The translations under genes were made by a program, and so were the position numbers. From contig CAZHHN010000003.1 in NCBI GenBank assembly GCA_964532415.1, positions 3,777-67,776 on the forward strand: a DNA stretch of 64,000 nucleotides. The letters run 5' to 3'. Source of the DNA: an uncultured Gammaproteobacteria bacterium (lineage in GTDB: Bacteria > Patescibacteriota > Patescibacteriia > SG8-24 > DYFX01). Numbering within the stretch: position 1 is the first letter of the stretch; each line of letters begins with the position of its first letter. Of this stretch, positions 5,865 through 39,310 are shown one piece after another. The notes beneath the pieces were generated by a model. It was not told the origin of the DNA and did not search any database. It worked only from the letters and a program-made list of their open reading frames with translations.

Positions 5865-6124
5865 GCACTTCTTTATGAAATGCCGGCGGGAAATTAAAGT
5901 CCTCGGGCCGCGACAGCAACGTGTCTAAATAAGATGTAGAAGGAACTGCCTCCTCAGTGTATCACCTCTCCTCTATATAGCATACACCGGACAAAAGTCC
6001 GTCACGACCGGCTAGCGATTGACTACGCATTCCCCTATCGGGTGCCAATGTCCCGGCGGCATCTCCACCATCAAAAGAATCGCTCAAACAAGCGGTGCTT
6101 TTGTATCTCTGCAGATCGGAAGAT

Positions 6125-6394
6125 ATGGACCTCTCCCCTCCCATCCATTACGCTTCAGCCATGGACCCCATCAAACTCTCGCACGAAGAAATGAAGAAGC
6201 TCCTCTATGGCATCAAAAGCCTGGACGAGCAGCAGCGCGCGCTGATCGGGGAAACGCTCGCCGGACTCCTCAGACAGCATGGCCACATCTGGCCCGAAGA
6301 CCTGCATCGCGAACTCCGGCGCCTGCACGACGCGCACCGGATTTCCGACCTGGACCGGGAGAGCGTGACCGAAGCGTTGTTCCCGGCAAGCTAA
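6125..6394 (+). CDS. small hypothetical protein (89 aa)
   Basis: ATG at 6125 preceded by GGAAG. Lower-GC promoter region upstream. Followed immediately by a perfect hairpin terminator. No recognisable family. Confidence 0.4.
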   Translation: MDLSPPIHYASAMDPIKLSHEEMKKLLYGIKSLDEQQRALIGETLAGLLRQHGHIWPEDLHRELRRLHDAHRISDLDRESVTEALFPAS

Positions 6395-25818: not shown

Positions 25819-28800
25819 CTACGGGCAGGCCGGCGGACCGATTGGAGTTGTCATATCCACGGAAACTTGGTTCCCCGTCAGAGCGGCATAGTACACCCGG
25901 ACGTTGTCGATCAGGCCCCAGAACATGAATCCCGACGAGTCGCGTCCGATATTGAAGGCCGTGCCGGCGGCCGGTTCCGCGAACGACGCCGGAATGACGG
26001 TCGTTTCGCCCGTCATCGTGCCGTTACTCAGAAGGCCGTCGACGTAGATATCGAGCCTCCTGGGCACGGACGTCCCGTCGTAGACGCAGGTGACATGATG
26101 CGATTCGCCCAGATGGCGAATGGCCACGCTGTTTATCTGGATCGTGCCGCTGTTGCCCAACAGCAGCTCGCAGGCGTAATGCGGCTGGGTCGGATCGTGC
26201 CCGACGTCCGGGCTGGTCTTGATGCGCCACCCCTTCGTACTCGTCGCCCGCGCGGCAATCACCCCGTCCTCGCCGCCGGCCGGATTCGTCGTCGCATTGG
26301 TCCATGCGCTCAATGTCAGTTTCGACCGGTTCGTCGAGGTCGGGAAGGTATTGCTTTGAACGCTGTCCTTCTTGCCGTCCCGGAACCTCAGCGCCTTGCC
26401 GAACGAGGAACCGGCCGGCGACGACGTGACCCACTGTGCACCGTTGATCGTGCCGTTGTGATGGCACGTACTGTCGGCCGCGACGCTGCCGCTGCCGGCA
26501 TCGAAGGCGTAGGCCGCTTCCGCAGCCGGAAGCGTCACGACTTCGCAGGCGTCGCCGATGCCGTTGCCGTTCGAATCCTGTTGGCCGGGATTCGGGACCG
26601 TCGGACAGTTGTCCACACAGTTTGGTACGCCATCTCCGTCCCCATCCGTATCCGCTACCCCGCAACCACACGTACCTGGCGCCGTCTTGTTGGGATCGCT
26701 GGCGCAGGCGTCATGACAGTCGGCCGTACCATCGCCGTCAGTATCCGTATCGGCCACACCGCAGCCACACTGGCCTGGTGCAGTCTTATTCGGATCCACA
26801 GGGCAGGCGTCATGACAATTCGGCGTCCCGTCATTGTCACTGTCCGTATCCGCCACGCCGCAACCGCACTGACCGGGAACGGTCTTCGCGGGGTCGGCGG
26901 GACAGGCATCAATGCAATCGGGGAATCCGTCGCCATCGCCGTCGAGATCGGCCGTGCCGCAGCCGCAAACGCCTGGAGCGATCTTGAATGGATCGAGCGG
27001 GCAGGTATCATGGCAATCCGCAGTCCCATCGCCATCCGTATCGACATCGGAAACGCCGCAGCCGCATTGGCCCGGCACGGTCTTAGCCGGATCGATTGGA
27101 CACGCGTCGATGCAATTCGGAAATCCATCGCCATCCGTATCGGTATCCGCTACGCCGCAACCACACGTGCCTGGAGCCGTCTTATTGGGATCGCTGGCGC
27201 AGGCGTCATGACAGTCGGCCGTACCGTCGCCGTCAGTATCCGTATCGGCCACACCGCAGCCACACTGGCCTGGTGCAGTCTTATTCGGATCGGTGGCACA
27301 CGCATCGTGGCAATCGGGAGTCCCATCGCCATCGCCGTCGGCATCCGAAACGTCGCAGCCGCAGACGCCAGGAACCGTCTTGCCCGGATCTGTGTCGCAC
27401 TCGTCATTGCAGTCCGCGGTTCCGTCCGCATCCGTATCGACATCGGAAACGCCGCAGCCACATTGGCCCGCGCTGACCGACTTGGCCGGATCGAGCGGAC
27501 AGGCATCGACCCCATCCCTGACGCCATCGCCGTCGCTGTCGGCGGTATAGAGGCCATCCTTCACCAAGCAAACCTGTGCCGGCGTGAGCGCGACTCTGAA
27601 GAATGACATATCCTGCAGCTGGCTGGCCGGTCCGGTCGTAAAGACCATGCCGTTCAGGTTCGTGACGTTGGCGGCGACATGCACGAGCGATGCCACCTGG
27701 ACGCAATCAAGGTAGAGACGAAGCGTTCCGTCGGCTTCGCGGACGGCGGCGACATGCTTCCAGCCGGCACCGACGAGCGTCGGGACGGTGGCATGCACTT
27801 CATCCGTGCCCGCCAAGCCTGCCAAGAAACCGATGTCGGTCCCAGATGCACCCAGGCTGATCTTGATGCTGTTCCCCAACGGAAGGAGGCCGGTCTTGGA
27901 AAACCAGTCCCGCCCGTTGGACGTTCCGACATTGGCGCGAAAGGCGATCGAGAAAGCTCCCTGACCGACATGGTTTTCGCGCCGATCCGGAATGCCGGGC
28001 GGCCCGACGACGGTCGTCCAAGTGGGACTGCCCGAAACCATCGAACCGGCCGCGCCGGTGAAACCGGGAGAACCCGGTCCCCACGGGCTACCCGGCAAGG
28101 CGGCGCCGTTCGGTCCCAGAGAGGAACCGGTGGGCGTATCCCGATCATGCAGGACGTTCGTGGTGTTCCCACTTGACGCTTCGTCGAGCCGCCAACGATT
28201 GACCAAGCCATCGATGCCCGGCCGTTCGATCTGGCAGACGGAGTTGCATCCGTCGCCGTCCACGAGATTACCATCGTCGCACTCCTCGGAAGCGCCGATG
28301 CTGGTCGCTGTGACGACACCATCGCCGCATTGGTTCATGGTCGAAAGCCGGCACATACCATGTTCGGCCGACGTCCAGATGTCATCGATCTTTGCAACCG
28401 TCAGCGCGCGGCCGACGGTTGGTTCGTCGATATCGATGCCGGGACTCGAACGGCGGTTGCAGGCGAGGCTGTCGACGTCCGATGCTTGCGTATTGGACTG
28501 GTACTCGACCAGGTCGGCGTGGGCATCCACCGCATTGTCGACATACACGTCAACCGGACCGGCTGCGTTCCCGTTGACCATGCCCAGCTTGTTGGGCAGG
28601 TTCAGAACCACGAAGTGCCATGCGCCGTCGGCGACATTGGTCGCGCCCTCGACGGTGACGACCGGTACCGAGTTGACCCGGTAGACCAGGTGACCGGCCG
28701 CGTTGACATAGAACTCGAAGTGCCGATTGGCACCGTGGAATTCCATGATGCTTTGGTCTCCGGTACCTCCCGGCATCCGCCGAACCCAAGCCATCAACGA

Positions 28801-29133
28801 GCAATCGCTCGTATTGGCACAGGTGGCGGAATCGCCTCCGGCGGCAAGTGCGTAGTTACGGCCATCGAAGTGGAATGCTTGGATGGCCTTGCCGGCGACG
28901 TAATCGCCGCCGTCATAGACCAGGTCCATCGATCCACTCGAGTGCCCGGGGAAACCGTCGCCGGTCCACCAGACCTTGGTACCGAGCGGCACCGTCGCGC
29001 AGGAACCGGCCAAGTATGTATTGGTGATGCCGGGCGCCGGAGCGGTGCCGACGGAAGCGTCCGGGGCTTCGGCCGATCCGGGCCCGACGTCTCCCGCACA
29101 GGCCATGGCGCCCAAGGCGAAGGCGAAAGCCAT
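25819..29133 (-). CDS. giant secreted lipoprotein: LamG/ConA-like domain, Myxococcus-type Cys-rich repeat, ~9 thrombospondin type-3 Ca-binding repeats, C-terminal LamG-like domain
   Basis: Start at MAFAFALGAMAC (lipobox-like). QCGDGVVTATSIGASEECDDGNLVDGDGCNSVC repeat. Repeated DxDxDGxxDCxDACxxDPxKTxPGxCGCGVxD units ending in CVDNCPTVPNPGQQDSNGNGIGDACE. Confidence 0.75.
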   Translation of the reverse strand: MAFAFALGAMACAGDVGPGSAEAPDASVGTAPAPGITNTYLAGSCATVPLGTKVWWTGDGFPGHSSGSMDLVYDGGDYVAGKAIQAFHFDGRNYALAAGGDSATCANTSDCSLMAWVRRMPGGTGDQSIMEFHGANRHFEFYVNAAGHLVYRVNSVPVVTVEGATNVADGAWHFVVLNLPNKLGMVNGNAAGPVDVYVDNAVDAHADLVEYQSNTQASDVDSLACNRRSSPGIDIDEPTVGRALTVAKIDDIWTSAEHGMCRLSTMNQCGDGVVTATSIGASEECDDGNLVDGDGCNSVCQIERPGIDGLVNRWRLDEASSGNTTNVLHDRDTPTGSSLGPNGAALPGSPWGPGSPGFTGAAGSMVSGSPTWTTVVGPPGIPDRRENHVGQGAFSIAFRANVGTSNGRDWFSKTGLLPLGNSIKISLGASGTDIGFLAGLAGTDEVHATVPTLVGAGWKHVAAVREADGTLRLYLDCVQVASLVHVAANVTNLNGMVFTTGPASQLQDMSFFRVALTPAQVCLVKDGLYTADSDGDGVRDGVDACPLDPAKSVSAGQCGCGVSDVDTDADGTADCNDECDTDPGKTVPGVCGCDVSDADGDGDGTPDCHDACATDPNKTAPGQCGCGVADTDTDGDGTADCHDACASDPNKTAPGTCGCGVADTDTDGDGFPNCIDACPIDPAKTVPGQCGCGVSDVDTDGDGTADCHDTCPLDPFKIAPGVCGCGTADLDGDGDGFPDCIDACPADPAKTVPGQCGCGVADTDSDNDGTPNCHDACPVDPNKTAPGQCGCGVADTDTDGDGTADCHDACASDPNKTAPGTCGCGVADTDGDGDGVPNCVDNCPTVPNPGQQDSNGNGIGDACEVVTLPAAEAAYAFDAGSGSVAADSTCHHNGTINGAQWVTSSPAGSSFGKALRFRDGKKDSVQSNTFPTSTNRSKLTLSAWTNATTNPAGGEDGVIAARATSTKGWRIKTSPDVGHDPTQPHYACELLLGNSGTIQINSVAIRHLGESHHVTCVYDGTSVPRRLDIYVDGLLSNGTMTGETTVIPASFAEPAAGTAFNIGRDSSGFMFWGLIDNVRVYYAALTGNQVSVDMTTPIGPPACP
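26590..27550. repeat. intragenic tandem DNA repeats (~114-nt units) encoding the TSP3 array
   Basis: Near-identical blocks, e.g. 26690-26800 vs 27170-27290 (ggcgcaggcgtcatgacagtcggccgtacc...cacactggcctggtgcagtcttattcggatc). Confidence 0.7.
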
Positions 29134-29391
29134 CGCCGTCAGGCATGGACGTAATAATCGCTTGCAGTTTCGCAGATGTAACACGAGAATCTCCTTTTTC
29201 TTGCGACGTTCCTGGGGAATACGACGAGAGATAAGCCAGACGATGTCAATGTACGGTGCAGCTTTGCCAGAAGGGTGTTTCGCACCCTTATTGCCTCCTG
29301 GCGACATGAAGTCCCGCGAACCTGAAGCCCGCGGGACGTTCAAAAAATACGCTGATTCGGACGGCGCGTCAAGCGGTCGTGGATGGGTCGC

Positions 29392-29703: not shown

Positions 29704-30558
29704 TCAACCGGCAATCTCAGAGGGAGCGGGTTGCCACCAAGGCAACGAATTCCCGCTCGACAAAGCGACGACTTCCTGCGGGCTCTTCGGCAAAAACCAA
29801 TCCCGCAACTTCAGAGGGCGTCCGATCACGACCAAGAGGGCGAGCGGAGCGGCGATGTTGCCGAATCGCTCCACGAACTCCCAGACCGGCTCACTGACCA
29901 ACAGGCGGGCGAACGGATCGAAACACAGGAAAATAAGCGCGAGCAGGACCGGACCCCGGGCCGGCCGGAGCAGAATGATGGCTCCGAGCGCCATTTCAAT
30001 CCAGCCGAAGGTCTTGATCATATGATAGGCATCGACGAAGGCATGGTCGAAGCCGTAGGCGGCCATGTAGGTGTACCACAGCTTTTTGGCAACGATGGCA
30101 CCATAGGCCCCGTGCCCGAGAAAATGGACGGCGGTTCCGAGCACCAGGCACCAGGAAATGAAGCGCAATCTCTTTGACTTATCGATCGCCGTTTTCAGAT
30201 AGAAGGGGCTCGGGAATTGCATGAACAGGAACGCCAACGGGACGATCCAGTTCGGAAACCGCTCGAAGAATTCGGCCCAGCCCTCGCCGGCGAGCGGACG
30301 AAGCAAGGCGGTCCAAAACCCCCAGCTGACCATGTAATACAAGGCGGGCCGCGAAGGCCTGAGAAGGATGGAGATGGCGATGCTGACATCGAAAATGCCG
30401 ATGGCACGCATGAGCGGCCAGGCAATGGCCGGCGTGATGCCGACGGCCGCAAAATACGGAAGCCAGCCGACTTTTCCTCCGATCACCCCGAACATGCCGT
30501 GCCCGATGAAGATACCCGCGGTCCCGATCCGAAGGATCCAATGAAGGGTTTTGTGCAT
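29704..30558 (-). CDS. polytopic membrane protein with internally duplicated DoxX-like halves
   Basis: 284 aa, ~8 TM helices. Repeated (I/L)GTAxxFxGHGxxG motif (RIGTAGIFIGHGMFGV / VLGTAVHFLGHGAYGA). Confidence 0.45.
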   Translation of the reverse strand: MHKTLHWILRIGTAGIFIGHGMFGVIGGKVGWLPYFAAVGITPAIAWPLMRAIGIFDVSIAISILLRPSRPALYYMVSWGFWTALLRPLAGEGWAEFFERFPNWIVPLAFLFMQFPSPFYLKTAIDKSKRLRFISWCLVLGTAVHFLGHGAYGAIVAKKLWYTYMAAYGFDHAFVDAYHMIKTFGWIEMALGAIILLRPARGPVLLALIFLCFDPFARLLVSEPVWEFVERFGNIAAPLALLVVIGRPLKLRDWFLPKSPQEVVALSSGNSLPWWQPAPSEIAG

Positions 30559-30650
30559 AGTATCTTCATGATACTACATACGCGCGCAAATGCATAAAGA
30601 CGCCCGGATCGGGTTAATCTTACAATATTCCCTGGTCACAAACCGCGTCT

Positions 30651-30686
30651 ATGGAAAATCCCCCAGCGCAAGGCTGGAGGATTTTC
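30651..30686. repeat. perfect nested inverted repeat (15-bp stem hairpin) abutting direct repeat L
   Basis: GGAAAATCC-CCCAGC-gcaag-GCTGG-a-GGATTTTCC. No flanking T-run. Confidence 0.6.
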
Positions 30687-30761
30687 CATGGCGGCCCTTG
30701 GCGTACGAACTTCGAACCTTCTTTACGGCCAATAGAGTCTTTGTACCGGCCTTTGCCTAGC
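30682..30761. repeat. direct repeat L (~80 bp) flanking the copper cassette
   Basis: ttccatggcggcccttggcGtaCgaacttcgaaccttctttacggccaaTagAgtctttgtaccGGcctttgcctagc. ~92% identical to 35026-35105. Confidence 0.8.
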
Positions 30762-30772
30762 CGTTTATGGCG

Positions 30773-31162
30773 TTATCCCTGTACGTCTAAGGCAAACCGA
30801 TACATCCCCATCCCGCAGGTTCCTTGGAGTGACCCCTCTTGGAGTGTCCCGAGCGCGATATCAGTCGTGCCGGTGGGCGGAAGCATCTTGTCCACACCGA
30901 GGCTCGGAATGCGGACTTGCGACGAGCAGTCATACGTGGCATTCGTCTCGAACCTCAAGACGGTCGGCATGCCCGCTTTCACCGTGCTCGTTCCCGGCTG
31001 GTAGCCGCCTTTCACCTTGATGCGCACGATCTGTGTTGCATCGACGACCGACACGTTCGTTCCGGTCGGTGCAGTGACGGCGGGCTGGGACGGTCCGCCA
31101 CGGAAAAGGACGAAAGCGCCAATGACGATGACTGCCGCAGCGAGAATCGTAGTTGGTTTCAT
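30773..31162 (-). CDS. cupredoxin-like (Cupredoxin_1/EfeO-N-like) secreted protein, putative Cu-binding
   Basis: 129 aa. Signal/TM anchor, then VKGGYQPGTSTVKAGMPTVLRFETNATYDCSSQ...GTCGMGMY, a beta-sandwich cupredoxin-like pattern with Cys/Met ligand candidates. Last gene of the cop operon. Confidence 0.5.
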   Translation of the reverse strand: MKPTTILAAAVIVIGAFVLFRGGPSQPAVTAPTGTNVSVVDATQIVRIKVKGGYQPGTSTVKAGMPTVLRFETNATYDCSSQVRIPSLGVDKMLPPTGTTDIALGTLQEGSLQGTCGMGMYRFALDVQG

Positions 31163-31166
31163 GGGG

Positions 31167-32189
31167 TTAGATGTTGAAGAAGGGAGGGATGTAACCGGCC
31201 GCGACGAGGGCGTTCAGGATAGTGAACAGGGCGAATAGGATCACGATGATTCCGGCCGTCTTGAAGAAGACGCCCTTGTTGCGGCTTTTCTCGACGCTGA
31301 ACGAGCTGAAGCTGATGAGCGCGAGGACCGGGAACGTCCCAAGCGCGAACGCCAGCATCGTCAGGCCGCCTTTCAGAAAGCTGCCGGTCGTGAGGGCATA
31401 GAGCTGCATCGACTGCGTGAAACCGCACGGCAGGAAGAACGTGGCGACGCCGACCAAGAGCGGCGTGAGCGTGTGGTTGAGCTTCGAGATGCCGAACGCA
31501 TGCTTGGAGAAAGCCCTGGGCATCGCGGGCTGGAACCTCTTGGTCCAATCGAAGACGTCCAGCAGATTGATGCCGAGGATGAACATGACGATGCCGACGA
31601 TGACGCCCAAGACGAGAGTGGCGGAAGCGTTCAGCCGGAACGCCGAGCCCGCCACGCCGATTGCTCCCCCGAGCACGAAGAACGAGACGATCCGCCCGGC
31701 GTGGAACATCATCTGCGGCCTCGTCCTGTCGCCTTCCTTGGCGAAGGTAGCCGACATCGAGAGCACCAATCCGCCCACGACCGCCAGGCAGGTGGACAGC
31801 GAGGCGACGGCGCCGATCACGAAGGCGGTGCCATACGTAACATTGCTGCCCGTAATGAGGTTGACCAAGCCCGCCTTTTGGAGGGCGAGGAACCCGATCA
31901 TGATCGCCGCCGCGATCGGAAGTGCGTACTGGAACTCTCTCCAGTTCTTTTTCCGCAGCGGCTTGTCGACCGAGAGCGTGTAGCTGTATTTTTCAAGGAT
32001 GGCAGTCAGGTCGCCCGCAATCGCCACGGTTTCTTTGCCTCCAAAATCCCCGGTCACTTCGACGGTATGCGTCTTCAGGCTCGATTTCGCCCGGATAATA
32101 TACGGCACGTCCTGCAATTCGCTCTCGGTCATAAGAATGCAGGCGTCGCAGTGCATCCCCGTAATGTGGAAGAGAAGTGTCTTTTCCAT
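31167..32189 (-). CDS. HMA-domain (MxCxxC) fused to DsbD_2/TauE-like polytopic membrane protein
   Basis: N-terminal HITGMHCDACI heavy-metal-associated motif. ~8 TM helices with conserved Cys (LSTCLAV, FFLPCGF). Confidence 0.65.
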   Translation of the reverse strand: MEKTLLFHITGMHCDACILMTESELQDVPYIIRAKSSLKTHTVEVTGDFGGKETVAIAGDLTAILEKYSYTLSVDKPLRKKNWREFQYALPIAAAIMIGFLALQKAGLVNLITGSNVTYGTAFVIGAVASLSTCLAVVGGLVLSMSATFAKEGDRTRPQMMFHAGRIVSFFVLGGAIGVAGSAFRLNASATLVLGVIVGIVMFILGINLLDVFDWTKRFQPAMPRAFSKHAFGISKLNHTLTPLLVGVATFFLPCGFTQSMQLYALTTGSFLKGGLTMLAFALGTFPVLALISFSSFSVEKSRNKGVFFKTAGIIVILFALFTILNALVAAGYIPPFFNI

Positions 32190-32192
32190 ACG

Positions 32193-34460
32193 TCATAGCT
32201 TCTTCGTCTTCAGCCGGAGCGAATTGCCGACGACCGAAAAACTGGAGAAAGCCATCGCCAGCCCCGCGAAGACAGGGCTCAGCAGCCAGCCGAAGATCGG
32301 ATAGAACAGCCCGGCCGCGAGCGGGATACCCACCGTGTTATAGATGAAGGCCCAGAACAGGTTTTGCCTGATCCCGCGCATGGTCATCTTCGAGAGCCGG
32401 ATCGCTTTCACGAGGCGGGAGATGTCGCCGTGGAGCAGCGTGATCCCGGCCGATTCGATGGCGACGTCCGTGCCGGTCGCCATGGCGATGCCGACGTCTG
32501 CTTTGGCGAGCGCCGGAGCGTCGTTCACACCGTCTCCGGCCATGGCGACGACGCGACCGTCCGACTGCAAGCTCTTGATCTTGTCGAGCTTGCCCTCGGG
32601 CAGGACTTCCGCGACGATCTCGTCCACGCCCGCCTGTCTGCCGATGAACTCGGCCGTGTTTCTGTCGTCGCCGGTCAGCATGACGACCTTGATGCCAAGC
32701 GCGTGGAGGCTTGAGACGGCTTCCGCCGCCCCTTCCCGCAGCGCATCAGCAACCATGACGACCGCCAGTACGCCCCGCGCTGTCGCAAGCAGCACCGGCG
32801 TCTTACCTTCCGAGGTTTCTGCTTGAAGGCAGGCGGCGTCGAATCGCAGCTTGAGCGCTGTAATGAGCTTAGCATTGCCTGCGTAGTATTCAGTGCCGTT
32901 CACGGTTCCTTTCACGCCTTGACCCTTGATCGCCTCGAAACTATCGACGGGCAGAAGAGCAATCTTCTTGCCTTCGGCATACGCCTCGATCGCGTGCGCG
33001 ATGGGATGTTCCGATTTCTTCTCCAACGAGGCCAGAATCGCAACGAGCTCCCGCTCGTCCGTATCGACGAAGCGGCGAAGAGAGACGAGTTCCGGCTTGC
33101 CCTTGGTCAGGGTGCCCGTCTTGTCGATTACGACCGTATCGACCTCGTGCAGCCGTTCGAGCGTCGCCGCATCTTTAATAAGGATGCCTTCCTTCGCGCC
33201 CTTGCCGACGCCCACAATGATGGCCGTCGGCGTAGCGAGGCCGAGCGCGCACGGGCAGGCGATAACGAGCACGCCCACGAAGGAGACGAGGCCGTTCGAA
33301 AGCGCCTGCGAGAAGCCGAGGGGCTGCGTGCCGAAAACGAGCCAAGCGGCCAAGGTCACGAATGCCACGACAAGGACGCCCGGCACGAAAACGGCCGAAA
33401 TCCTGTCCGCAAGGGCCTGGATCGGCGCGCGGCTCCCTTGGGCTTCCTCCACCATCTTGATGATGCGCGAAAGCATCGTTTCCGCCCCGACTTTGGTTGC
33501 CTTGAACGTGAAGGAGCCGGTCGTATTCATGGTTCCCGAAACGACCGCATCTCCGGCCGATTTCTTCACGGGCATCGGCTCCCCTGTGACGACGGCCTCA
33601 TCCACGTAGGACGATCCTTCAACGACGGTGCCGTCGACGGGAAGGCGTCCTGCAGGTTTCACGACGATCAGATCGCCGTGCACGACCCGATCAACAGACA
33701 GTTCCTGCTCCTTGCCGTCACGGACGACGAGCGCGGTCTTCACCTGGAGGTTCAGCAGCTTCTCAATGGCGTCGCCGGTCCTGAGCTTCGAGCGGGCTTC
33801 AAGATACTTGCCGAGCGCGATGAAGGTGATGACGACGATCGTGACGTCGTAGTAGGTGTGCTCGACGTTCATGAAGGGCTTGAGCACATCCTCGAACGCC
33901 GACACGGCGAAACTGTAGAGATACGCAGCCGCGGTGCCGAGGCCGATCAGCGTATCCATGTTCGCCTTGCCATAGCGCAGGAAGCGGTACAGGCCGAGCA
34001 GATACGGTTTGCCGACGACGAAGAGGGTGTAGGTCGCCATCAGCGGGAGCAGGTGGTGAGAGAACTCGTCCCAAAGATACGGAATCGCCGGGACAGCGCC
34101 GAGCTGCGTGGCGATCTCCCAGCCCATGACGAAAACACTGAACGCGGCGAGCGGGATGATTGAAAGCACCTGGCCCCGCATTTCGGCGATCTCCGCGAGC
34201 TTCTCGTTTTTTGACTGGTTCGTACCTGCGTGTCTGGAGTGGTCCTCCGGCATCATCAATTTGTATCCGAGATGTTCGATGTGTTTCGAAAGCTGTTCCG
34301 GGCTGGTTTTCGAGGCGTCGAAAGCGAGCTTGGCGGTCTCGGTACCATAGTTCACCTCGGCCGAGACGACGCCTACCGTTTTCTTGAGCGTCTTTTCGAT
34401 GATGCCCGCGCAGGAAGCGCAGTGCATACCCTTGATCTTGTAGATTGTTGTTCCATCCAT
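32193..34460 (-). CDS. copA: copper-translocating P1B-type ATPase CopA
   Basis: N-terminal GMHCASC HMA. CPC (ACPCALGLATP). Phosphorylation DKTGTLT. HP and GDGVNDAPAL motifs. 755 aa. Confidence 0.92.
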   Translation of the reverse strand: MDGTTIYKIKGMHCASCAGIIEKTLKKTVGVVSAEVNYGTETAKLAFDASKTSPEQLSKHIEHLGYKLMMPEDHSRHAGTNQSKNEKLAEIAEMRGQVLSIIPLAAFSVFVMGWEIATQLGAVPAIPYLWDEFSHHLLPLMATYTLFVVGKPYLLGLYRFLRYGKANMDTLIGLGTAAAYLYSFAVSAFEDVLKPFMNVEHTYYDVTIVVITFIALGKYLEARSKLRTGDAIEKLLNLQVKTALVVRDGKEQELSVDRVVHGDLIVVKPAGRLPVDGTVVEGSSYVDEAVVTGEPMPVKKSAGDAVVSGTMNTTGSFTFKATKVGAETMLSRIIKMVEEAQGSRAPIQALADRISAVFVPGVLVVAFVTLAAWLVFGTQPLGFSQALSNGLVSFVGVLVIACPCALGLATPTAIIVGVGKGAKEGILIKDAATLERLHEVDTVVIDKTGTLTKGKPELVSLRRFVDTDERELVAILASLEKKSEHPIAHAIEAYAEGKKIALLPVDSFEAIKGQGVKGTVNGTEYYAGNAKLITALKLRFDAACLQAETSEGKTPVLLATARGVLAVVMVADALREGAAEAVSSLHALGIKVVMLTGDDRNTAEFIGRQAGVDEIVAEVLPEGKLDKIKSLQSDGRVVAMAGDGVNDAPALAKADVGIAMATGTDVAIESAGITLLHGDISRLVKAIRLSKMTMRGIRQNLFWAFIYNTVGIPLAAGLFYPIFGWLLSPVFAGLAMAFSSFSVVGNSLRLKTKKL

Positions 34461-34509
34461 ATGTTCAGGTAAATGAAAACCAAGCGGGGGCCAAAGCCGA
34501 CGCTTGGTT

Positions 34510-34884
34510 TCAATTACGCAAGATGATGGTGGAGAGATTTTGATGCAAAAGGAGTTTTCCTATGCCCGAACGCCAGCGAGGATGAACGCGCTCAACGCGA
34601 CCGACTTCCGCAAGCCGCTCGTGGAGAAAGAGGATGAGCAGCGCCAACACGAAAACGGCGAAGGGAAAAAGCGGCGCGGGACTTGAGGCCGGGATAGCGG
34701 AGAGGCAGTGGCTCAGGCATTCCATGCCAGACATGTCGCCGGGCATCGAATCGCAGACGGAGCCGATGCAGGTGCCGTGATCCGTGGCCATTCCAGAACC
34801 CATGCCGAAAAATGCCAGTCCCGCGAACGTCGTGACGAAGAGGACAAGCGAGGCGATCAGGAATGAAAGGAGGGTGCGGCGCAT
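34510..34884 (-). CDS. small membrane protein with Met/Cys/His-rich periplasmic segment (putative Cu-binding)
   Basis: 124 aa. TM, then GMGSGMATDHGTCIGSVCDSMPGDMSGMECLSHC, then TM. First gene of the cop operon. Confidence 0.45.
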   Translation of the reverse strand: MRRTLLSFLIASLVLFVTTFAGLAFFGMGSGMATDHGTCIGSVCDSMPGDMSGMECLSHCLSAIPASSPAPLFPFAVFVLALLILFLHERLAEVGRVERVHPRWRSGIGKLLLHQNLSTIILRN

Positions 34885-35174: not shown

Positions 35175-36221
35175 TTAGAACTTGTGCGCTTCCAGCCATG
35201 CGAAAAGCTCAATCCAAACTTGGAGAAGCGCTGCCTTTTCTTTTTCTTCCCCCTTCTTCCATTCGCTCGCGCCCAAATCCAGCATGACGGTGTTCATCGC
35301 GAAGTTCAGCAGATTGAACCAATATTGCTGATCTTCGGAAGGATCACGACCAAGTACTCCCGTACTCCACAGATTTGTCCACTCTTCAATGCGCCGCACG
35401 ATGGAAGCCAGAGTAACATGCTCATCGCGGGTATGCATGATATCGACCCACATCGGAAAAGCGAGTTCATAGTGCCGTGGGCGATACGACCAATACAGAT
35501 TCGCAAGGAGGGTGAAGCCGTCGATTGTCTCGTCGTATTTGACGTCGAATCCCGAGAGATGCCCGTGGGTGAAGTGAATATCGCCTAGCTGGCATCGATC
35601 AAGAACGGCGAAGTAGCGTGACCGCAAATCCTCAACGATATACCTTTCGACATGTTGATTGGCTGACGCCGCGGCAATCTCCGAAAAGTGCGCGTGGGCT
35701 TCCCGATACCTTTCCTGCATTGTCCCCTTTGGCATCGGAAGCCACGGATCGGCCGGGAGCATGAGATCGAAGAACTCTTTGAGAAAATCGGCGTGACGTT
35801 CTTGCTCACGAGAAGTTGGTCGCTGACCCTCCCAGAGATTAGGAAGTCCTGACAGATCTTCAAAAATGATGAAACCGTACCCATCCTTTTCGTTCCATGC
35901 CTTGTCAATCAGCATTCCCGGCAGCCTAATACGCGCACTACGGTTGTGCTCGCTCACGTGTCGGATAATAAAACCTTCATCGAACGGCAACGGCCGAAGT
36001 TGAAGTTTTACCACCGCGCGAGTTTCGCCTTTCTGCGCTCGAACGATAAAACTCCCTACCTTTTGGCTGTCGTAATAGACGCCAGAAAAAAGACGGTTGT
36101 TGACGTCGGTTTTCCATCCATACTGCGATTCAATTTCGCTTAACGCGCGTGCCATCAACTCCTTGCCATCATTGGCAGAAAGCGCATTATCCGTAATTCT
36201 ATTGCCGTATTCCTTTGCCAT
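35175..36221 (-). CDS. phosphotransferase-family kinase (APH/choline-kinase-like fold)
   Basis: 348 aa. Brenner-like motif IHFTHGHLSGFDVKYD. Lower-GC codon usage than the surrounding core genes. Confidence 0.4.
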   Translation of the reverse strand: MAKEYGNRITDNALSANDGKELMARALSEIESQYGWKTDVNNRLFSGVYYDSQKVGSFIVRAQKGETRAVVKLQLRPLPFDEGFIIRHVSEHNRSARIRLPGMLIDKAWNEKDGYGFIIFEDLSGLPNLWEGQRPTSREQERHADFLKEFFDLMLPADPWLPMPKGTMQERYREAHAHFSEIAAASANQHVERYIVEDLRSRYFAVLDRCQLGDIHFTHGHLSGFDVKYDETIDGFTLLANLYWSYRPRHYELAFPMWVDIMHTRDEHVTLASIVRRIEEWTNLWSTGVLGRDPSEDQQYWFNLLNFAMNTVMLDLGASEWKKGEEKEKAALLQVWIELFAWLEAHKF

Positions 36222-36313: not shown

Positions 36314-36391
36314 TGGCGGGCCGGACGGGATTCGAACCCGCGATTTCCTCCGTGACAGGGAGGCGCGATAACCGGGCTTCGCTACCGGCCC
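36314..36391 (-). tRNA. tRNA-Asp (anticodon GTC)
   Basis: Minus-strand sequence GGGCCGGTAGCGAAGCCCGGTTATCGCGCCTCCCTGTCACGGAGGAAATCGCGGGTTCGAATCCCGTCCGGCCCGCCA. 7-bp acceptor, anticodon loop CTGTCAC, T-loop GGTTCGAATCC, encoded CCA. Confidence 0.85.
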
Positions 36392-36451: not shown

Positions 36452-37327
36452 TCATGCGGTGAAGATTTCCCCGGGAAACCCGGGGGATTTCCGGACGCTG
36501 CGATCGGGGAAAAGCAGCAGGTAGTCGAAATCGAAATGCGGCAGCAGCGCTTCGGGCGCCGTGAAATACAGAGCGGTCGCCATGGCGTCGGCCAAGAGCG
36601 TCGTCCCGGCCACCGCCCAGACGGCTGCCAAATGCCGAGGCGATTCAAGCGTCCGCGGATCCATGATGTGGTGGAAGCGGCTCCAAGCGCGGCGATTGCC
36701 GGCCGATCCGCAAATGCTGCGGTTGGCGATCCCGGCCACGCCGATCGCCTTGGACGCGTCGGCCGGATCTTCCAAGCCGACCCGAAGCTCCGCGCCGGAC
36801 GGATCGCGTTCGCGGATGTCCCCGCCCGCGTCGATGCAATAAGATCGCACGCCCCGCGCCTCCAAAAGTTCGCCGATAAGATCGATCAGATACCCCTTGC
36901 CGAGCGCGCCGAAATCGAGCAGAGCCGGCTGCCTGAGCCGAAGTTTCGGATACGTATATTCAAGCGCATCCTCCCAGCGCGGAGGCGTTTTCAACCGGCC
37001 CGGCTGCAGCGAATACTCCGCATCGTACCCGGCATCCGAAAGTAGCTGCCCGATGAGCGGCGTCATGGCGCCGTTCGTCAAATCGTACAGCCGTCTGTAG
37101 AGATCGAGCATCGGCTTGGCGTCCGCGGGCAGATCGAATTCCTCCGCGCGCCGCGCCATCTCGGCCACGAGCGAATCTTCCCGGAAACGGGAGTAGTGCC
37201 GGTCGAAAACGCCGATGCGATCCGAAACGAGACGAAGGAGAAGCTCCTTCGTCTCGTCGGCCAGCGTTTCCCGGATGTCGATCTGCCATCGCGTGCCGAT
37301 GGCTTCGAAGGCCAGGGACGTCCCCAT
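36452..37327 (-). CDS. apbE: FAD:protein FMN transferase ApbE
   Basis: ApbE family signature regions (GAMTPLIGQ...FGALGKGYLIDL...IDAGGDI...SICGSAGN...HHIMDPRT). Start at MGTSLAFEAIGTRWQ. Confidence 0.8.
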   Translation of the reverse strand: MGTSLAFEAIGTRWQIDIRETLADETKELLLRLVSDRIGVFDRHYSRFREDSLVAEMARRAEEFDLPADAKPMLDLYRRLYDLTNGAMTPLIGQLLSDAGYDAEYSLQPGRLKTPPRWEDALEYTYPKLRLRQPALLDFGALGKGYLIDLIGELLEARGVRSYCIDAGGDIRERDPSGAELRVGLEDPADASKAIGVAGIANRSICGSAGNRRAWSRFHHIMDPRTLESPRHLAAVWAVAGTTLLADAMATALYFTAPEALLPHFDFDYLLLFPDRSVRKSPGFPGEIFTA

Positions 37328-37331
37328 GCCT

Positions 37332-37853
37332 TCAGGCCCTGGCCTGCGCCTTGATCTTGGCGACGGCGTCGTTGAAACCCATCGGGGTGCGCGAGGAGCC
37401 GGAGACCTTTCCCAGATTGAGTTCGTCGAGGTTCTTGCCGATGACAAGCGGCTTGTAGTTATCGGCGAACATCTTCATGAAGTTGCCGGAGATGGCGACT
37501 TTCGGGGTTCCCACGAACTGGCTGTCGACGACGACACCGTTCTTGAGCGTCAGCGTGACGGTCACCTCCTCGGAGCCGCTGTGATAGGTGTAGTCCCCCT
37601 TGGCGGTGTAGGTGCCGTCCCTGTAGGACGATTTCCCGTCGGGCGGCATGGTGGCGGGAGTCGGCGGCTCGGGCGGCGGCGTGGACGGCGCGGGAGTCGG
37701 CACGACCTGAACGTCGACCTTGGCGCCGGTATCGGTTTGAACGCTCACGGGCGGCTGCTGGGTGCAGCCGGCGCCGAGCGCGATCAGCGTAGCGGCGGCT
37801 CCGATCAAGCCAGTCATGAACAAGGAGGCACGTTTCGTTTCGTGTTGCGGCAT
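37332..37853 (-). CDS. FMN-binding-domain lipoprotein (extracytoplasmic flavoprotein, ApbE substrate candidate)
   Basis: Signal peptide with lipobox LGAGC. Pro/Thr-rich linker. C-terminal FMN_bind-like segment (KVSGSSRTPMGFNDAVAKIKAQ) with Ser/Thr flavinylation candidates. Confidence 0.6.
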   Translation of the reverse strand: MPQHETKRASLFMTGLIGAAATLIALGAGCTQQPPVSVQTDTGAKVDVQVVPTPAPSTPPPEPPTPATMPPDGKSSYRDGTYTAKGDYTYHSGSEEVTVTLTLKNGVVVDSQFVGTPKVAISGNFMKMFADNYKPLVIGKNLDELNLGKVSGSSRTPMGFNDAVAKIKAQARA

Positions 37854-37998
37854 AGAAAATGAGGTAATGATCATTGAATTTTAATACCGGCGACAGGAGC
37901 TGTCAAACCGCCAAGCGATCCGAGATAATACGATGCTGCGCGCGTCTTTGGTGCATCATGCGTGGTCCATCAAAAAAGACCGCCCAGCGCCTGAACGG

Positions 37999-38946
37999 TC
38001 AATCGTCCCAGTCTCCCCCGCCCGTCCATGCCTGCACCTGACCGACTCTCTCAGCTTCACCATGCAACCAGCGCTGTCCGGTAACCACATCAATGATCTC
38101 GGAACGCGCCCCGCGCCTCACTTCGAATCGCATATTGTTCGGATGGTGACGCCCGTGGAGAGAGATCCAGTCGAAGCCCTCATCCGGCGTGCAGATGCCG
38201 TCTGCGCGACGAACAATGTACCAATTTTCTCCCTTCATCGCGATCGAAAACGGATGCCGCAACCGATCGTCCAAATCGTCGTAGACGCCGTTTCCAATAC
38301 GCCGACCTCCGGTATCGACCAGCATCCAGCCCTCCGACATCCGAACCCAGGCGCGCTGCGCATAGAAATCCAGAGCCTCCAGGCACGTTCCGCTCCAAGC
38401 CTGCTCGCCTGCCGGCGTCAGGAACAGGAACTGATCGGCTGTCTGGATCAAGGCAAGACCATCGGAAAAATCGTAGGCTTCGGTAATTCCGGGCGGCCCG
38501 ATCAGCTCTCCGGCGGCATTCAGAAGGCGCCAATGCCCCATCTCGAATGTGCTGCCCAGTCGGCGTACCCAACGGACCTCTCCGTAGGCACGATGGGCAA
38601 TCTCTGAGAATTCGCCGAGCACTTTGCCGTCGGGCAGAATCGCCGTACCGCCCCGGTCATCCTTGTCCAGCGGACCGGCCCAAACGATCCCGCCCGGTCC
38701 ATCCTCATGCTTTTTCCGGTGGCCTTTGAGAAACGCATCGCCGATCTTCACGCCACACACGTCAATGAGCCAGTTTGAGCCGCTCCATGGTTCTTCAACC
38801 TCGGCAACGAGCGGTTTCTCGCAGACCCAGATCCAGCTGTACGGTTGGCCGATCTGCGTTCCTTTGGCATCAAGGTGATGCCACCAGCGGCCGCGCCTGA
38901 CGAATCGAGTCGTGCCGAACGGCACATCTTCTTCATTCCGATTCAT
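37999..38946 (-). CDS. WG/KWG-like beta-repeat protein
   Basis: Repeated ...AYDFSDGLALIQ..., ...WRLLNAAGELIGP... motifs typical of WG-containing repeat proteins. 315 aa. Confidence 0.4.
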   Translation of the reverse strand: MNRNEEDVPFGTTRFVRRGRWWHHLDAKGTQIGQPYSWIWVCEKPLVAEVEEPWSGSNWLIDVCGVKIGDAFLKGHRKKHEDGPGGIVWAGPLDKDDRGGTAILPDGKVLGEFSEIAHRAYGEVRWVRRLGSTFEMGHWRLLNAAGELIGPPGITEAYDFSDGLALIQTADQFLFLTPAGEQAWSGTCLEALDFYAQRAWVRMSEGWMLVDTGGRRIGNGVYDDLDDRLRHPFSIAMKGENWYIVRRADGICTPDEGFDWISLHGRHHPNNMRFEVRRGARSEIIDVVTGQRWLHGEAERVGQVQAWTGGGDWDD

Positions 38947-39046: not shown

Positions 39047-39310
39047 TCATTTTGCGGTCGCCCAGCTTTTGAGCTTCTCGTAATCGACCGCGCCGCAGAT
39101 TTTCGCTCCGGTCTCCTCGTTCACGAAGAACGGCACGCCGCCGCAGGCCCCGCCTGCGTCTTTTTCGGCACGTAGCTTTTCGTTGGCCTCGTCGTGCCAC
39201 GTTTCGAATTTCTTCACTTCAACGCCGAGCTCCTTCTCCAGCTGTTCGATCAAGGGGGCCATCCGGACGCAATGCGGGCATTCCTTGCCGTAGAATTCAA
39301 GCAGGGCCAT
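39047..39310 (-). CDS. thioredoxin/glutaredoxin-like small redox protein
   Basis: 87 aa. CPHC active-site motif in FYGKECPHCVRMAP. Confidence 0.75.
   Translation of the reverse strand: MALLEFYGKECPHCVRMAPLIEQLEKELGVEVKKFETWHDEANEKLRAEKDAGGACGGVPFFVNEETGAKICGAVDYEKLKSWATAK

Follow-up and report, generated by a model that had tools for sequence, protein, structure and literature searches.

The stretch of DNA analysed here, a 64-kb segment that we call the window, contains a two-gene, stripped-down variant of the already described NQR/RNF-like electron-export system, which proves to be very common among the ultra-small CPR/Patescibacteria. The first gene encodes a small lipoprotein with an FMN_bind-like domain (FMNb), and the second encodes a member of the ApbE family of FAD:protein FMN transferases. 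We propose, at a probability of roughly 0.55 for the explanation as a whole, that the FMNb-ApbE operon is an NQR/RNF-like core making a one-flavin carrier for the cell surface, and that this carrier is flavinylated before export. The relatives of the window are reduced-genome Patescibacteria, in agreement with the kind of organism assumed in a preliminary description of this DNA.

Organization of the FMNb-apbE operon

The two genes are co-directional ORFs, both on the minus strand. FMNb occupies 37332..37853 (173 aa, counted from Met8) and apbE occupies 36452..37327 (291 aa). The TGA stop codon of the lipoprotein gene (37334-37332) is followed by aggc and then by the apbE ATG at 37327, a spacer of exactly 4 nt; the order of a lipobox protein and then ApbE across such a spacer is as first described. 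Directly 5′ of the lipoprotein gene lies a promoter-like site on the minus strand, TTGACA-17 nt-TAAAAT (37878..37906), with 11/12 matches. The region has four promoter-like sites, where shuffled sequences would lead one to expect 0.5. Further upstream, a terminator-like hairpin on the minus strand (37978..38000), with a 10-bp stem that includes six GC pairs and is followed by TTTTTTGATG, ends the upstream gene and overlaps the stop of a 315-aa ORF (37999..38946). This hairpin marks off the two-gene unit at its 5′ end. The 3′ boundary is a minus-strand tRNA-Asp(GTC) gene found by ARAGORN (36314..36391), which is outside the unit and has a promoter-like site of its own at 36435-36407. The tRNA sits where most relatives have the gene for an RnfD-FNR fusion protein. 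Between these limits, the lipoprotein gene and apbE form a self-contained two-gene operon with its own promoter-like site.

The start codon of FMNb is uncertain, Met8 and Met20 being the candidates. The ORF extends to 37874 and is 180 aa long; the preliminary description placed the start at 37853, which is Met8, and the NCBI gene call places it at Met20, for a protein of 161 aa. The -10 element ends 4 nt upstream of the first ATG (37874) and 25 nt upstream of the Met8 ATG (37853), a position that favours Met8. A Met is invariant at the Met8 position in the family alignment, and a start at Met20 would leave the signal peptide without a charged n-region.

FMNb: export signal, globular domain and predicted acceptor serine

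The N-terminus of FMNb reads MPQHETKRASLFMTGLIGAAATLIALGAG-C. The segment 37764..37853 (minus strand) has the elements of a signal peptide with a lipobox, namely an n-region containing K and R, then a hydrophobic core and L-G-A-G-C, as read directly from the sequence; the lipobox-like G-A-G-C ends in the Cys at ORF residue 37 and is kept in the closest relatives. Across the family, 114 of 120 members have an N-terminal hydrophobic segment, and the positive-inside rule is followed, K/R being richer before the segment in 69 and after it in 13. Next comes a disordered tether rich in Pro, Thr, Ser and Ala (37635..37763, minus strand; ORF residues 38-80), with a pLDDT of 51-78 in the AF2 model. In the family as a whole, the linker is rich in T/P/A/S and its length has a median of 42 aa. 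The predictions for FMNb are export and tethering to the membrane, and therefore a surface flavoprotein, as originally suggested, is the best reading of it. Tat export of a pre-folded flavoprotein was considered and rejected, since an RR motif is present in only 1 of the 114 members.

The C-terminal 100 aa (ORF residues 81-180; 37335..37634, minus strand) form a globular β1-β2-β3-α domain that we take to be a divergent FMN_bind domain of the NqrC/RnfG-like type, an assignment that holds only at the level of the family. That family is a large one in the Patescibacteria, with 638 homologues at 90% clustering, 3,410 representatives of 50%-identity clusters at E ≤ 1e-3, and members in at least 535 species-level genomes. 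FMNb itself, whether as the full protein or as the isolated domain, has no match to Pfam FMN_bind (PF04205) at E ≤ 1. Weak matches (E ≤ 1) are found in 16 of 32 relatives, and only 6 of 120 members match at E ≤ 2e-4, which is roughly Pfam's threshold. Two relatives with 42-45% identity to the window protein supply the connection: the curated cutoff of 22 bits is exceeded by P0053 (42% identical and E = 3.4e-27 to FMNb; 26.6 bits) and by P0087 (28.5 bits), with profile positions 5-74 of 77 covered. By sequence comparison through these intermediates, FMNb is homologous to the FMN_bind family. The FMN_bind-like domain of the preliminary description accordingly stands for the family and fails as a direct match of FMNb.

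An AF2 model of the domain alone has a mean pLDDT of 95.9 and a pTM of 0.88. In the model, a β1-β2-β3 sheet is followed by helices, with the V-S-G-S-S segment discussed below placed before the C-terminal helix; the topology is the β3-α arrangement described for FMN-bind1 (PMC11334425). Foldseek matches include RnfG 8rb8_G (TMq 0.54), 3o6u (0.56), 8p2a (0.44) and NqrC 3lwx (0.48), none of them significant. Over runs with the full-length and the domain-only models, the RnfG, NqrC, 3O6U and 8P2A matches have TM scores of 0.44-0.57 and best E-values of about 3e-3 to 3e-2; IscU/SufU score equally, so that the FMN_bind and IscU folds are inseparable with either model. An IscU-type function is ruled out because the domain contains no Cys. 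Searched against all PDB chains, the family sequence profile found no solved FMN_bind structure, only TM/low-complexity noise.

The predicted flavinylation site is V-S-G-S-S (37392..37406, minus strand; residues 157-161), with Ser161 as the predicted FMN acceptor, and it occupies the place where FMN_bind domains have [ST]-G-A-[ST]. The canonical motif is D-x-x-[ST]-G-A-[ST] (PMC12052999). The window site, G-K-V-S-G-S-S (residues 155-161), departs from it twice, in having Ser for Ala and in lacking the Asp, and it has the S-G and, at its end, the putative acceptor Ser. The consensus of the family reads [GTDS]-K-V-S-G-S-S, with Ser at the Ala position in 110 of 120 members and the Asp in only a minority. 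VSGSS itself is present in 106 of the 120, with Ser161 invariant and Ser160 nearly so. The version of the motif put forward for checking, [DS]xx[ST]GA[ST], is absent from FMNb, which has G at the first position and Ser in place of Ala. The preliminary reading had been made to depend on a motif or an FMN_bind match in the lipoprotein; by the Pfam and motif tests FMNb itself formally has neither, and the match is found in its relatives. Mutational data cited in PMC12052999 indicate that some motif changes reduce flavinylation and that Thr is preferred over Ser. We strongly infer that Ser161 would carry covalent FMN.

ApbE and the proposed place of flavinylation

The assignment of the second protein to the ApbE family is solid at the sequence level, and the flavin transferase named in the preliminary description is borne out. 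The protein matches PF02424 at E = 2.6e-39 (135.8 bits; cutoff 25.6), with residues 11-260 covering profile positions 2-250 of 266. It also matches 13 solved ApbE structures, with E-values down to 2.5e-15, and aligns with 5mgy, 4xgw and 2o18. Its HHIMDP aligns to SHVIDP/SHTLDP of the solved ApbEs (H-x-x-D-P, catalytic His), and its LLADAMAT aligns to LEADAWDT/LRADGLST (A-D-x-x-x-T, Mg-binding Asp/Thr). Among 120 homologues, conservation reaches at least 90% in the segments FxAIGTxW, YSRFRxDSLV, GKGY, AGGD, CGSAGNRR, HH and AD..T; the usual T-S-G of ApbE is G-S-A in the window's clade.

ApbE is encoded immediately downstream of FMNb in 79 of 80 related loci. This adjacency is far beyond chance, and the proposed pair of substrate and transferase is a conserved module. 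The junctions are tight or overlapping, and their spacing and frame vary among loci, from -23 to +200 nt; an FMNb-ApbE fusion made by frameshift or readthrough was rejected on this account. The coupling bears on the idea that ApbE has some other, cytoplasmic target and that the lipoprotein is unrelated to it. In Klebsiella pneumoniae, an ApbE that, like the window protein, has no signal peptide is cytoplasmic and flavinylates a soluble fumarate reductase, so that cytoplasmic ApbE paralogues with cytoplasmic substrates do exist (PMC12052999); the lack of a direct Pfam FMN_bind match in FMNb would also fit. We regard such a target as very improbable here, given the adjacency and the tight junctions, the match of FMNb relatives to FMN_bind, and the fact that FMNb has the module's only conserved [ST]-G-x-[ST] site. 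The Klebsiella substrate is cytoplasmic, whereas the window's only plausible substrate has an export signal and a lipobox. As judged from these sequence features, FMNb is most likely flavinylated by the window ApbE.

The arrangement poses a topological problem, as follows. In the window ApbE, 6 residues precede the first conserved strand, and 2-10 do so across homologues and syntenic copies. No signal peptide, lipobox or hydrophobic leader was found in the window ApbE, in 120 homologues or in 78 syntenic copies. The maximum Kyte-Doolittle hydropathy of a 15-aa segment in the first 45 aa is ≤1.45 in all 120 homologues, and the open frame upstream of apbE is too short for a leader in 78/78 syntenic loci. 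An upstream start was tried and rejected: extension by 40 codons to a TTG would run into gene 1 and add a stretch rich in Arg, Pro and Ser that is not hydrophobic. The family numbers more than 3,800 proteins, and faulty gene calling is an unlikely cause of a lack of leaders so uniform within it. An ApbE at work outside the cytoplasm, as the preliminary description had claimed, is not supported by these sequences. That description had counted a cytoplasmic ApbE with a different neighbour in relatives against its reading; the enzyme does look cytoplasmic, but the same neighbour is kept.

A classical extracytoplasmic flavinylation could still be imagined if ApbE reached the outside by non-classical secretion or piggy-backing and used exported FAD, much as in the Listeria FmnB-PplA pair. 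Characterised ApbEs that act on exported FMN_bind proteins are all exported themselves (PMC12052999, PMC8238504), and FMNb is clearly of the exported kind. Like the window, Listeria combines in a monoderm a surface lipoprotein with FMN_bind domain(s) and an ApbE-family transferase, although PplA has two canonical FMN_bind domains. According to PMC9973259, FmnB is an exported lipoprotein that receives FAD from a dedicated ECF exporter. Pfam and NCBIfam scans of the genes at 29.7-43.7 kb of the window found none of Ndh2, EetA/EetB, DmkA/DmkB, RibU, FmnA and a FAD-exporting ECF. This result, together with the uniformly missing leader and the lack of room for one, makes the classical route rather improbable in our view.

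We favour flavinylation before export. Because ApbE and all its relatives lack an export signal, we infer with moderate confidence that FMNb would be flavinylated on the cytoplasmic side, before or during Sec passage. ApbE is able to modify a 7-residue tag (PMC12052999), so a folded substrate is unnecessary. Flavinylation of an exported ApbE substrate ahead of its export did not turn up in our literature search, and a cytosolic ApbE failed to complement in Salmonella (PMC12052999). It is tempting to extend the proposal to the Patescibacteria at large, although we hold the extension only tentatively. A cytoplasmic leaderless ApbE, using cytoplasmic FAD, would flavinylate the unfolded V-S-G-S-S loop; the FMN-bearing chain would then pass through Sec and be lipid-anchored; and the outcome would be an extracellular reductase that is NAD(P)H-driven and Pfam-invisible.

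Relatives, known systems and biological meaning

In 44 of the 80 related loci, the gene next to the pair encodes an NqrB/RnfD-like-FNR fusion (505 aa; PF03116+PF00970+PF00175). A match to PF03116 is absent in about half of the fusions, and the best 120 matches of a homologue search with the fusion are all CPR-type. The possibility that the RnfD-like protein offers a second site for flavinylation was rejected: [ST]G[AS][ST] is present in only 1 of 43 fusion sequences, which leaves FMNb as the sole substrate. The fusion is absent from the 64-kb window, where tblastn gave a best E of 7.7 and a profile HMM of the 43 fusions, run at maximum sensitivity over six frames, found nothing (best E = 8).

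The missing fusion and the tRNA-Asp directly 3′ of apbE would suit a decaying remnant, in which RnfD-FNR was lost, the tRNA took its place and the remaining pair is functionless. We consider decay improbable. Neither ORF is disrupted, GC3 is high in both (0.74 and 0.84), all the family and catalytic motifs are retained, and the promoter-like site is strong. Identical copies are present in several independent assemblies. Moreover, about 35 of the 80 related loci likewise keep the pair without an adjacent fusion, 8 of them with DoxX instead.

CPR bacteria are commonly flavin auxotrophs, and FMNb might bind free flavin non-covalently at the surface for uptake, ApbE being a cytoplasmic FAD pyrophosphatase like Ftp or another flavin-handling enzyme. 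In T. pallidum, the ApbE homologue Ftp acts as an FAD pyrophosphatase (PMC4767422); the leaderless ApbE and the non-canonical motif of FMNb would be at home in such a scheme. The acceptor Ser is invariant, though, the frequent third gene encodes the redox protein RnfD-FNR and not a transporter, and no flavin transporter is conserved beside the pair, so we think scavenging or trafficking of flavin unlikely.

Other neighbours vary. An Nramp gene adjoins the module in loci L005 and L080, and VIT1 adjoins it in L015. In the window, a copper island lies 2-7 kb from the pair. The CPHC thioredoxin-like neighbour pointed out in the preliminary description is present at 39047..39310 (PF00085, 25.6 bits), but its relevance to the pair was rejected: it has no signal peptide and is common to only 2-3 of the 80 loci, which indicates synteny with close relatives and no functional link.

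The NQR/RNF-like system has been described by Meheust et al. 2021, eLife (PMC8238504) and Huang et al. 2024, mSystems (PMC11334425), and Meheust et al. defined it operationally by a cluster gene encoding a fusion of NqrB/RnfD (PF03116) with the NqrF NAD-binding domain (PF00175). The relatives point to this system, through the defining PF03116-PF00175 fusion as third gene in the 44 loci, and not to the Gram-positive extracellular electron transfer with NDH-2/DmkA to which the pair had been likened. The system likewise has a membrane-anchored, extracytosolic NqrC/RnfG-like subunit with a single FMN, encoded with apbE; it is known in the candidate phyla radiation, and its fusion is published as having no flavinylation site of its own (PMC8238504, PMC11334425). 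The window has the subunit and apbE but no fusion gene in 64 kb. It differs further in that its anchor is a lipobox instead of a TM helix, its site is V-S-G-S-S instead of [ST]GA[ST], and its ApbE is leaderless, a point undiscussed in PMC8238504 and PMC11334425. With NqrC/RnfG of Na+-NQR and RNF, FMNb shares an N-terminal membrane anchor, an ApbE encoded alongside, and an S-G-x-S/T loop that immediately precedes the C-terminal helix and contains the Ser/Thr acceptor, a predicted one in FMNb; its extracytoplasmic domain would have the FMN_bind fold as well. In contrast, the window locus has no NqrA/B/D/E/F or RnfA/B/C/D/E genes, and FMNb is much smaller, with a 100-aa domain below Pfam detection and a motif without Asp and Ala. 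The ApbE that serves Na+-NQR and RNF is periplasmic, whereas that of the window has no signal peptide or lipobox.

We propose that the module works as follows. FMNb would be exported by Sec and lipid-anchored, its NqrC/RnfG-type domain being kept off the membrane by the Pro/Thr-rich tether. With FAD and Mg2+, ApbE would link FMN to Ser161 in the V-S-G-S-S loop by a phosphoester bond; this would happen on the cytoplasmic side, either ahead of the passage of the pre-protein's C-terminal part through Sec or in its course. The product would be a surface-tethered one-flavin electron carrier. In the relatives, the NqrB/RnfD-like membrane domain with its FAD/NAD(P)H-binding reductase would pass electrons from cytoplasmic NAD(P)H outward to the FMNb flavin. 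The window organism would have only the two-gene core at this locus; as the window has no RnfD-FNR, electron input must be encoded elsewhere or come from a different membrane protein. Donor and acceptor can be suggested only weakly, with metal ions (Fe3+ or Cu2+) as the best guess for the acceptor, a guess for which the Nramp and VIT1 neighbours and the copper island give a hint.

To our knowledge, hardly any respiratory or redox machinery can be recognised in the CPR/Patescibacteria. The FMNb family is very large and mostly unannotated, and it escapes surveys based on Pfam and on signal peptides because only about 5% of the substrates reach the FMN_bind threshold, the ApbEs are leaderless and about half of the fusions have no PF03116 match. 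The published work lists 127 clusters and calls the CPR 'strikingly underrepresented' (PMC8238504, PMC11334425), whereas we find FMNb in at least 535 species-level genomes, with about 3,400 clusters at 50% identity. The published picture of a CPR largely without protein flavinylation is probably a detection artefact.

For the window itself the message is modest: a real two-gene flavinylation core whose electron donor and acceptor lie outside the view. We regard the pair as a moderately interesting case, a real variant of a known system with a topology puzzle. With the substrate consistently exported and the transferase not, one may ask in concrete terms at what place and time FMN is covalently attached. 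If flavinylation does precede export, this would be the first such case for ApbE, and it would explain extracellular covalent flavoproteins in cells without a known FAD exporter. An NAD(P)H-driven, Pfam-invisible extracellular reductase would then rank with the most common redox modules found in the candidate phyla radiation.

The pair as a self-contained unit

Both genes of the pair lie on the minus strand. The lipoprotein gene (gene 1, family FMNb) is an open reading frame of 180 aa (37874..37332), and the ApbE gene (gene 2, 291 aa) runs from a first ATG at 37327 to a stop at 36452. The spacer between them is exactly 4 nt, as first reported (junction ...GCC TGA aggc ATG GGG...). The candidate starts of gene 1 are at 37853, 37874, and 37817, and public gene calls disagree; the database protein P0361 begins at Met8 of the frame (173 aa), and the NCBI call begins at Met20 (161 aa). 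Met8, at 37853, the start originally assigned, is favored by the former call, by the family alignment, in which a Met at this position is invariant, and by a strong promoter-like site, TTGACA-17-TAAAAT (37906-37878, minus strand, 11/12 matches), which ends shortly 5′ of the gene 1 start. Four promoter-like sites were observed in the region versus 0.5 expected.

The gene preceding gene 1 ends in a terminator-like hairpin and T-run (38000-37978, minus strand), and a tRNA-Asp (36314-36391) lies 61 nt beyond ApbE. Because of the promoter-like site at its 5′ side, the hairpin before it, and the tRNA after it, the pair is a self-contained bicistronic operon. The flanking minus-strand genes (35175-36221, 348 aa, and 37999-38946, 315 aa) belong to no significant Pfam or NCBIfam family, a WG_beta_rep match being sub-threshold only, and are not kept beside the pair in relatives. 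The neighboring gene for a CPHC thioredoxin-fold protein, noted in the preliminary description, is real, but its product is leaderless, a gene and a terminator-like hairpin split it off from the pair, and it is found in only two or three loci.

A leaderless ApbE and an exported substrate

Gene 2 encodes a bona fide ApbE, as proposed (Pfam ApbE E = 2.6e-39; residues 11-260 span profile positions 2-250 of 266). Its alignment with the solved ApbE structures 5mgy, 4xgw, and 2o18 covers both the histidine of H-x-x-D-P and the metal site A-D-x-x-x-T; across 120 homologues, these and further family motifs are conserved at 90% or more. Its N-terminus, MGTSLAFEAIGTRW, places only six residues ahead of the first conserved strand. 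An upstream start was rejected; the 40-codon extension overlaps gene 1 and is Arg/Pro/Ser-rich and non-hydrophobic. Upstream of the conserved FEAIGT motif, the open frames of 78 syntenic loci leave no room for a signal peptide, and none of the 120 ApbE homologues (285-337 aa) has a hydrophobic leader, the maximum 15-residue hydropathy within the first 45 residues being ≤1.45 (median 0.48). The leaderless state is a property of the ApbE clade.

Export signals are instead carried by the substrate. The N-terminus of gene 1, MPQHETKRASLFMTGLIGAAATLIALGAG-C, is a lipoprotein-type signal, in agreement with the lipobox described earlier, and its G-A-G-C box is found again in the closest relatives. 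A strongly hydrophobic N-terminal segment is present in 114/120 FMNb proteins and is followed by a T/P/A/S-rich linker (median 42 aa). K/R residues are richer before the segment than after it (69 versus 13 proteins), and a Tat-like RR motif occurs once in the family.

Pfam, at E ≤ 1, finds no FMN_bind match in the window protein, so that the FMN_bind-like domain claimed for it is not detectable directly; it is nevertheless reached through intermediates. PF04205 matches occur in 16/32 aligned relatives, and two of the homologues, P0053 and P0087, which share 42-45% identity with the window protein, exceed the curated PF04205 cutoff over nearly the whole model. FMN_bind homology is established through these intermediates, and the domain is read as a divergent FMN_bind domain on a tether. 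The C-terminal 100 residues have a confident predicted fold (pLDDT 95.9, pTM 0.88), and the modeled order, β1-β2-β3, helices, loop, and C-terminal helix, matches the published topology of FMN-bind1 (PMC11334425). Profile searches found no solved homologue. The model's top Foldseek matches include RnfG, NqrC, 3O6U, and 8P2A (TM 0.44-0.57), with no significant E-value and with IscU/SufU scoring equally; an IscU-like role is excluded by the lack of any cysteine in the domain.

Residues 156-170, K-V-S-G-S-S-R-T-P-M-G-F-N-D-A, form the candidate site of modification. VSGSS is found in 106/120 homologues, and Ser161 is invariant. Relative to the published flavinylation motif, D-x-x-[S/T]-G-A-[S/T] (PMC12052999), the Asp position is G/T/D/S and Ala is Ser, with S-G and the acceptor hydroxyl kept; because of these two substitutions, the regular expression suggested in the preliminary description does not match. 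Some homologues, P0365 (440 aa), P0447 (283 aa), and P0433 (285 aa), have two or three tandem V-S-G-S-S domains and would be multi-flavin versions of this divergent subfamily.

Conserved coupling and membrane partners

Scanning 185,579 species genomes for the pattern yielded at least 600 candidate stretches, of which at least 535 encode relatives. Nearly all of the best 80 loci, which were analyzed, are labeled Patescibacteria (Uhr-, Parcu-, Sacchari-, Levy-, Roizman-, Gracili-, and Peribacteria). The pairing is conserved: ApbE lies directly downstream of FMNb in 79/80 loci, co-directionally in 78 of the 79, with junctions of -23 to about +200 nt. The sole locus with ApbE on the opposite strand, L052 of a Peribacteria MAG (5356-6324), encodes a 322-aa ApbE with an N-terminal extension and only 40% identity to the window ApbE.

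In 44/80 loci, the next gene encodes a ~505-aa RnfD-FNR fusion with NQR2_RnfD_RnfE, FAD_binding_6, and NAD_binding_1 domains. This trio corresponds exactly to the "NQR/RNF-like" system that Meheust et al. described (PMC8238504), and systems of this kind are already published. Huang et al. 2024 modeled a two-subunit complex in which NAD(P)H electrons pass to an extracytosolic flavinylated subunit, the membrane subunit lacking a flavinylation site (PMC11334425); in agreement, [ST]G[AS][ST] occurs once in total in an alignment of 43 fusions.

No RnfD-FNR homologue was found in the 64-kb window in any reading frame (best tblastn E 7.7; best maximum-sensitivity profile HMM E 8), and an adjacent fusion is likewise absent in about 35/80 related loci. 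Nor were any genes of a Listeria-type EET system seen from 29.7 to 43.7 kb. The window locus is a genuine yet incomplete variant of the known module. By rough motif calls on the 80 loci and the window, lipobox-type FMNbs number 11 without an adjacent fusion versus 4 with one, and TM-anchored FMNbs 22 versus 40, so that the lipobox type is enriched among fusion-less loci (Fisher's test p = 0.01).

In eight fusion-less loci (L010, L020, L022, L047, L056, L058, L078, and L080), a DoxX-family membrane protein (~135 aa, PF07681, E = 2.7e-12; for example, L078:6289-6696) directly adjoins the pair as a possible alternative membrane partner; no orthologue of this protein occurs in the window.

A copper/redox island lies 2-7 kb from the pair (29704-34884, minus strand). 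It encodes a weak DoxX_3-like membrane protein (29704-30558), a secreted cupredoxin-like protein (30773-31162), an HMA+DsbD_2 fusion (31167-32189), a Cu P-type ATPase (32193-34460), and a Cys/Met-rich membrane protein of 124 aa (34510-34884). Its closeness to the pair is not conserved, P-type ATPases being near the pair in only 5-6/80 loci. Elsewhere, an Nramp gene directly follows RnfD-FNR in L005 (8105-9391, E = 3e-79), another is close to the pair in L080 (1867-3384), and a VIT1 gene is close to an FMNb gene without adjacent ApbE in L015 (6759-7478, E = 2.4e-69); these neighbors echo a suggested role in iron assimilation (PMC8238504). Also on the minus strand of the window are a 3,179-aa ORF with a signal-like N-terminal segment (49713-59252) and a gene (25819-29343) for a secreted protein of 1,174 aa, which combines Laminin_G_3, TSP_3, and DUF4215 domains; a related Laminin_G_3/TSP_3 protein is close to the pair in L001.

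Proposed mechanism and extent of the family

There is strong reason to propose that ApbE moves FMN from FAD onto Ser161 of the predicted site. ApbE had been described as acting extracytoplasmically, for which no clade member has an export signal; export by an unrecognised route is the alternative. Since the clade is without such signals and an unstructured tag of 7 residues can serve as an ApbE substrate (PMC12052999), we infer, with moderate confidence, that FMN is attached on the cytoplasmic side. The leaderless ApbE would modify the C-terminal site before or during Sec translocation of FMNb, and lipidation would follow translocation. More tentatively, the electron source might be an unlinked membrane partner, of RnfD-FNR type or another kind, and the electrons would go on to an external acceptor.

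In the literature searched, we found no discussion of a uniformly leaderless ApbE with an exported substrate, of the S-G-S-S site, or of the scale of the FMNb family, which comprises 3,410 clusters at 50% identity (2,744 at E ≤ 1e-10). At 90% clustering, ApbE relatives exceed 3,800 and RnfD-FNR relatives number at least 7,450. The 2021 survey, which needed Pfam matches and signal peptides, judged CPR "strikingly underrepresented" (PMC8238504). Only 6/120 FMNb substrates match PF04205 at E ≤ 2e-4, roughly Pfam's threshold, and a stored PF03116 match is missing in about half of the RnfD-FNR fusions. Part of this underrepresentation probably reflects missed detection, and surveys demanding PF04205 or PF03116 matches will under-count CPR flavinylation.
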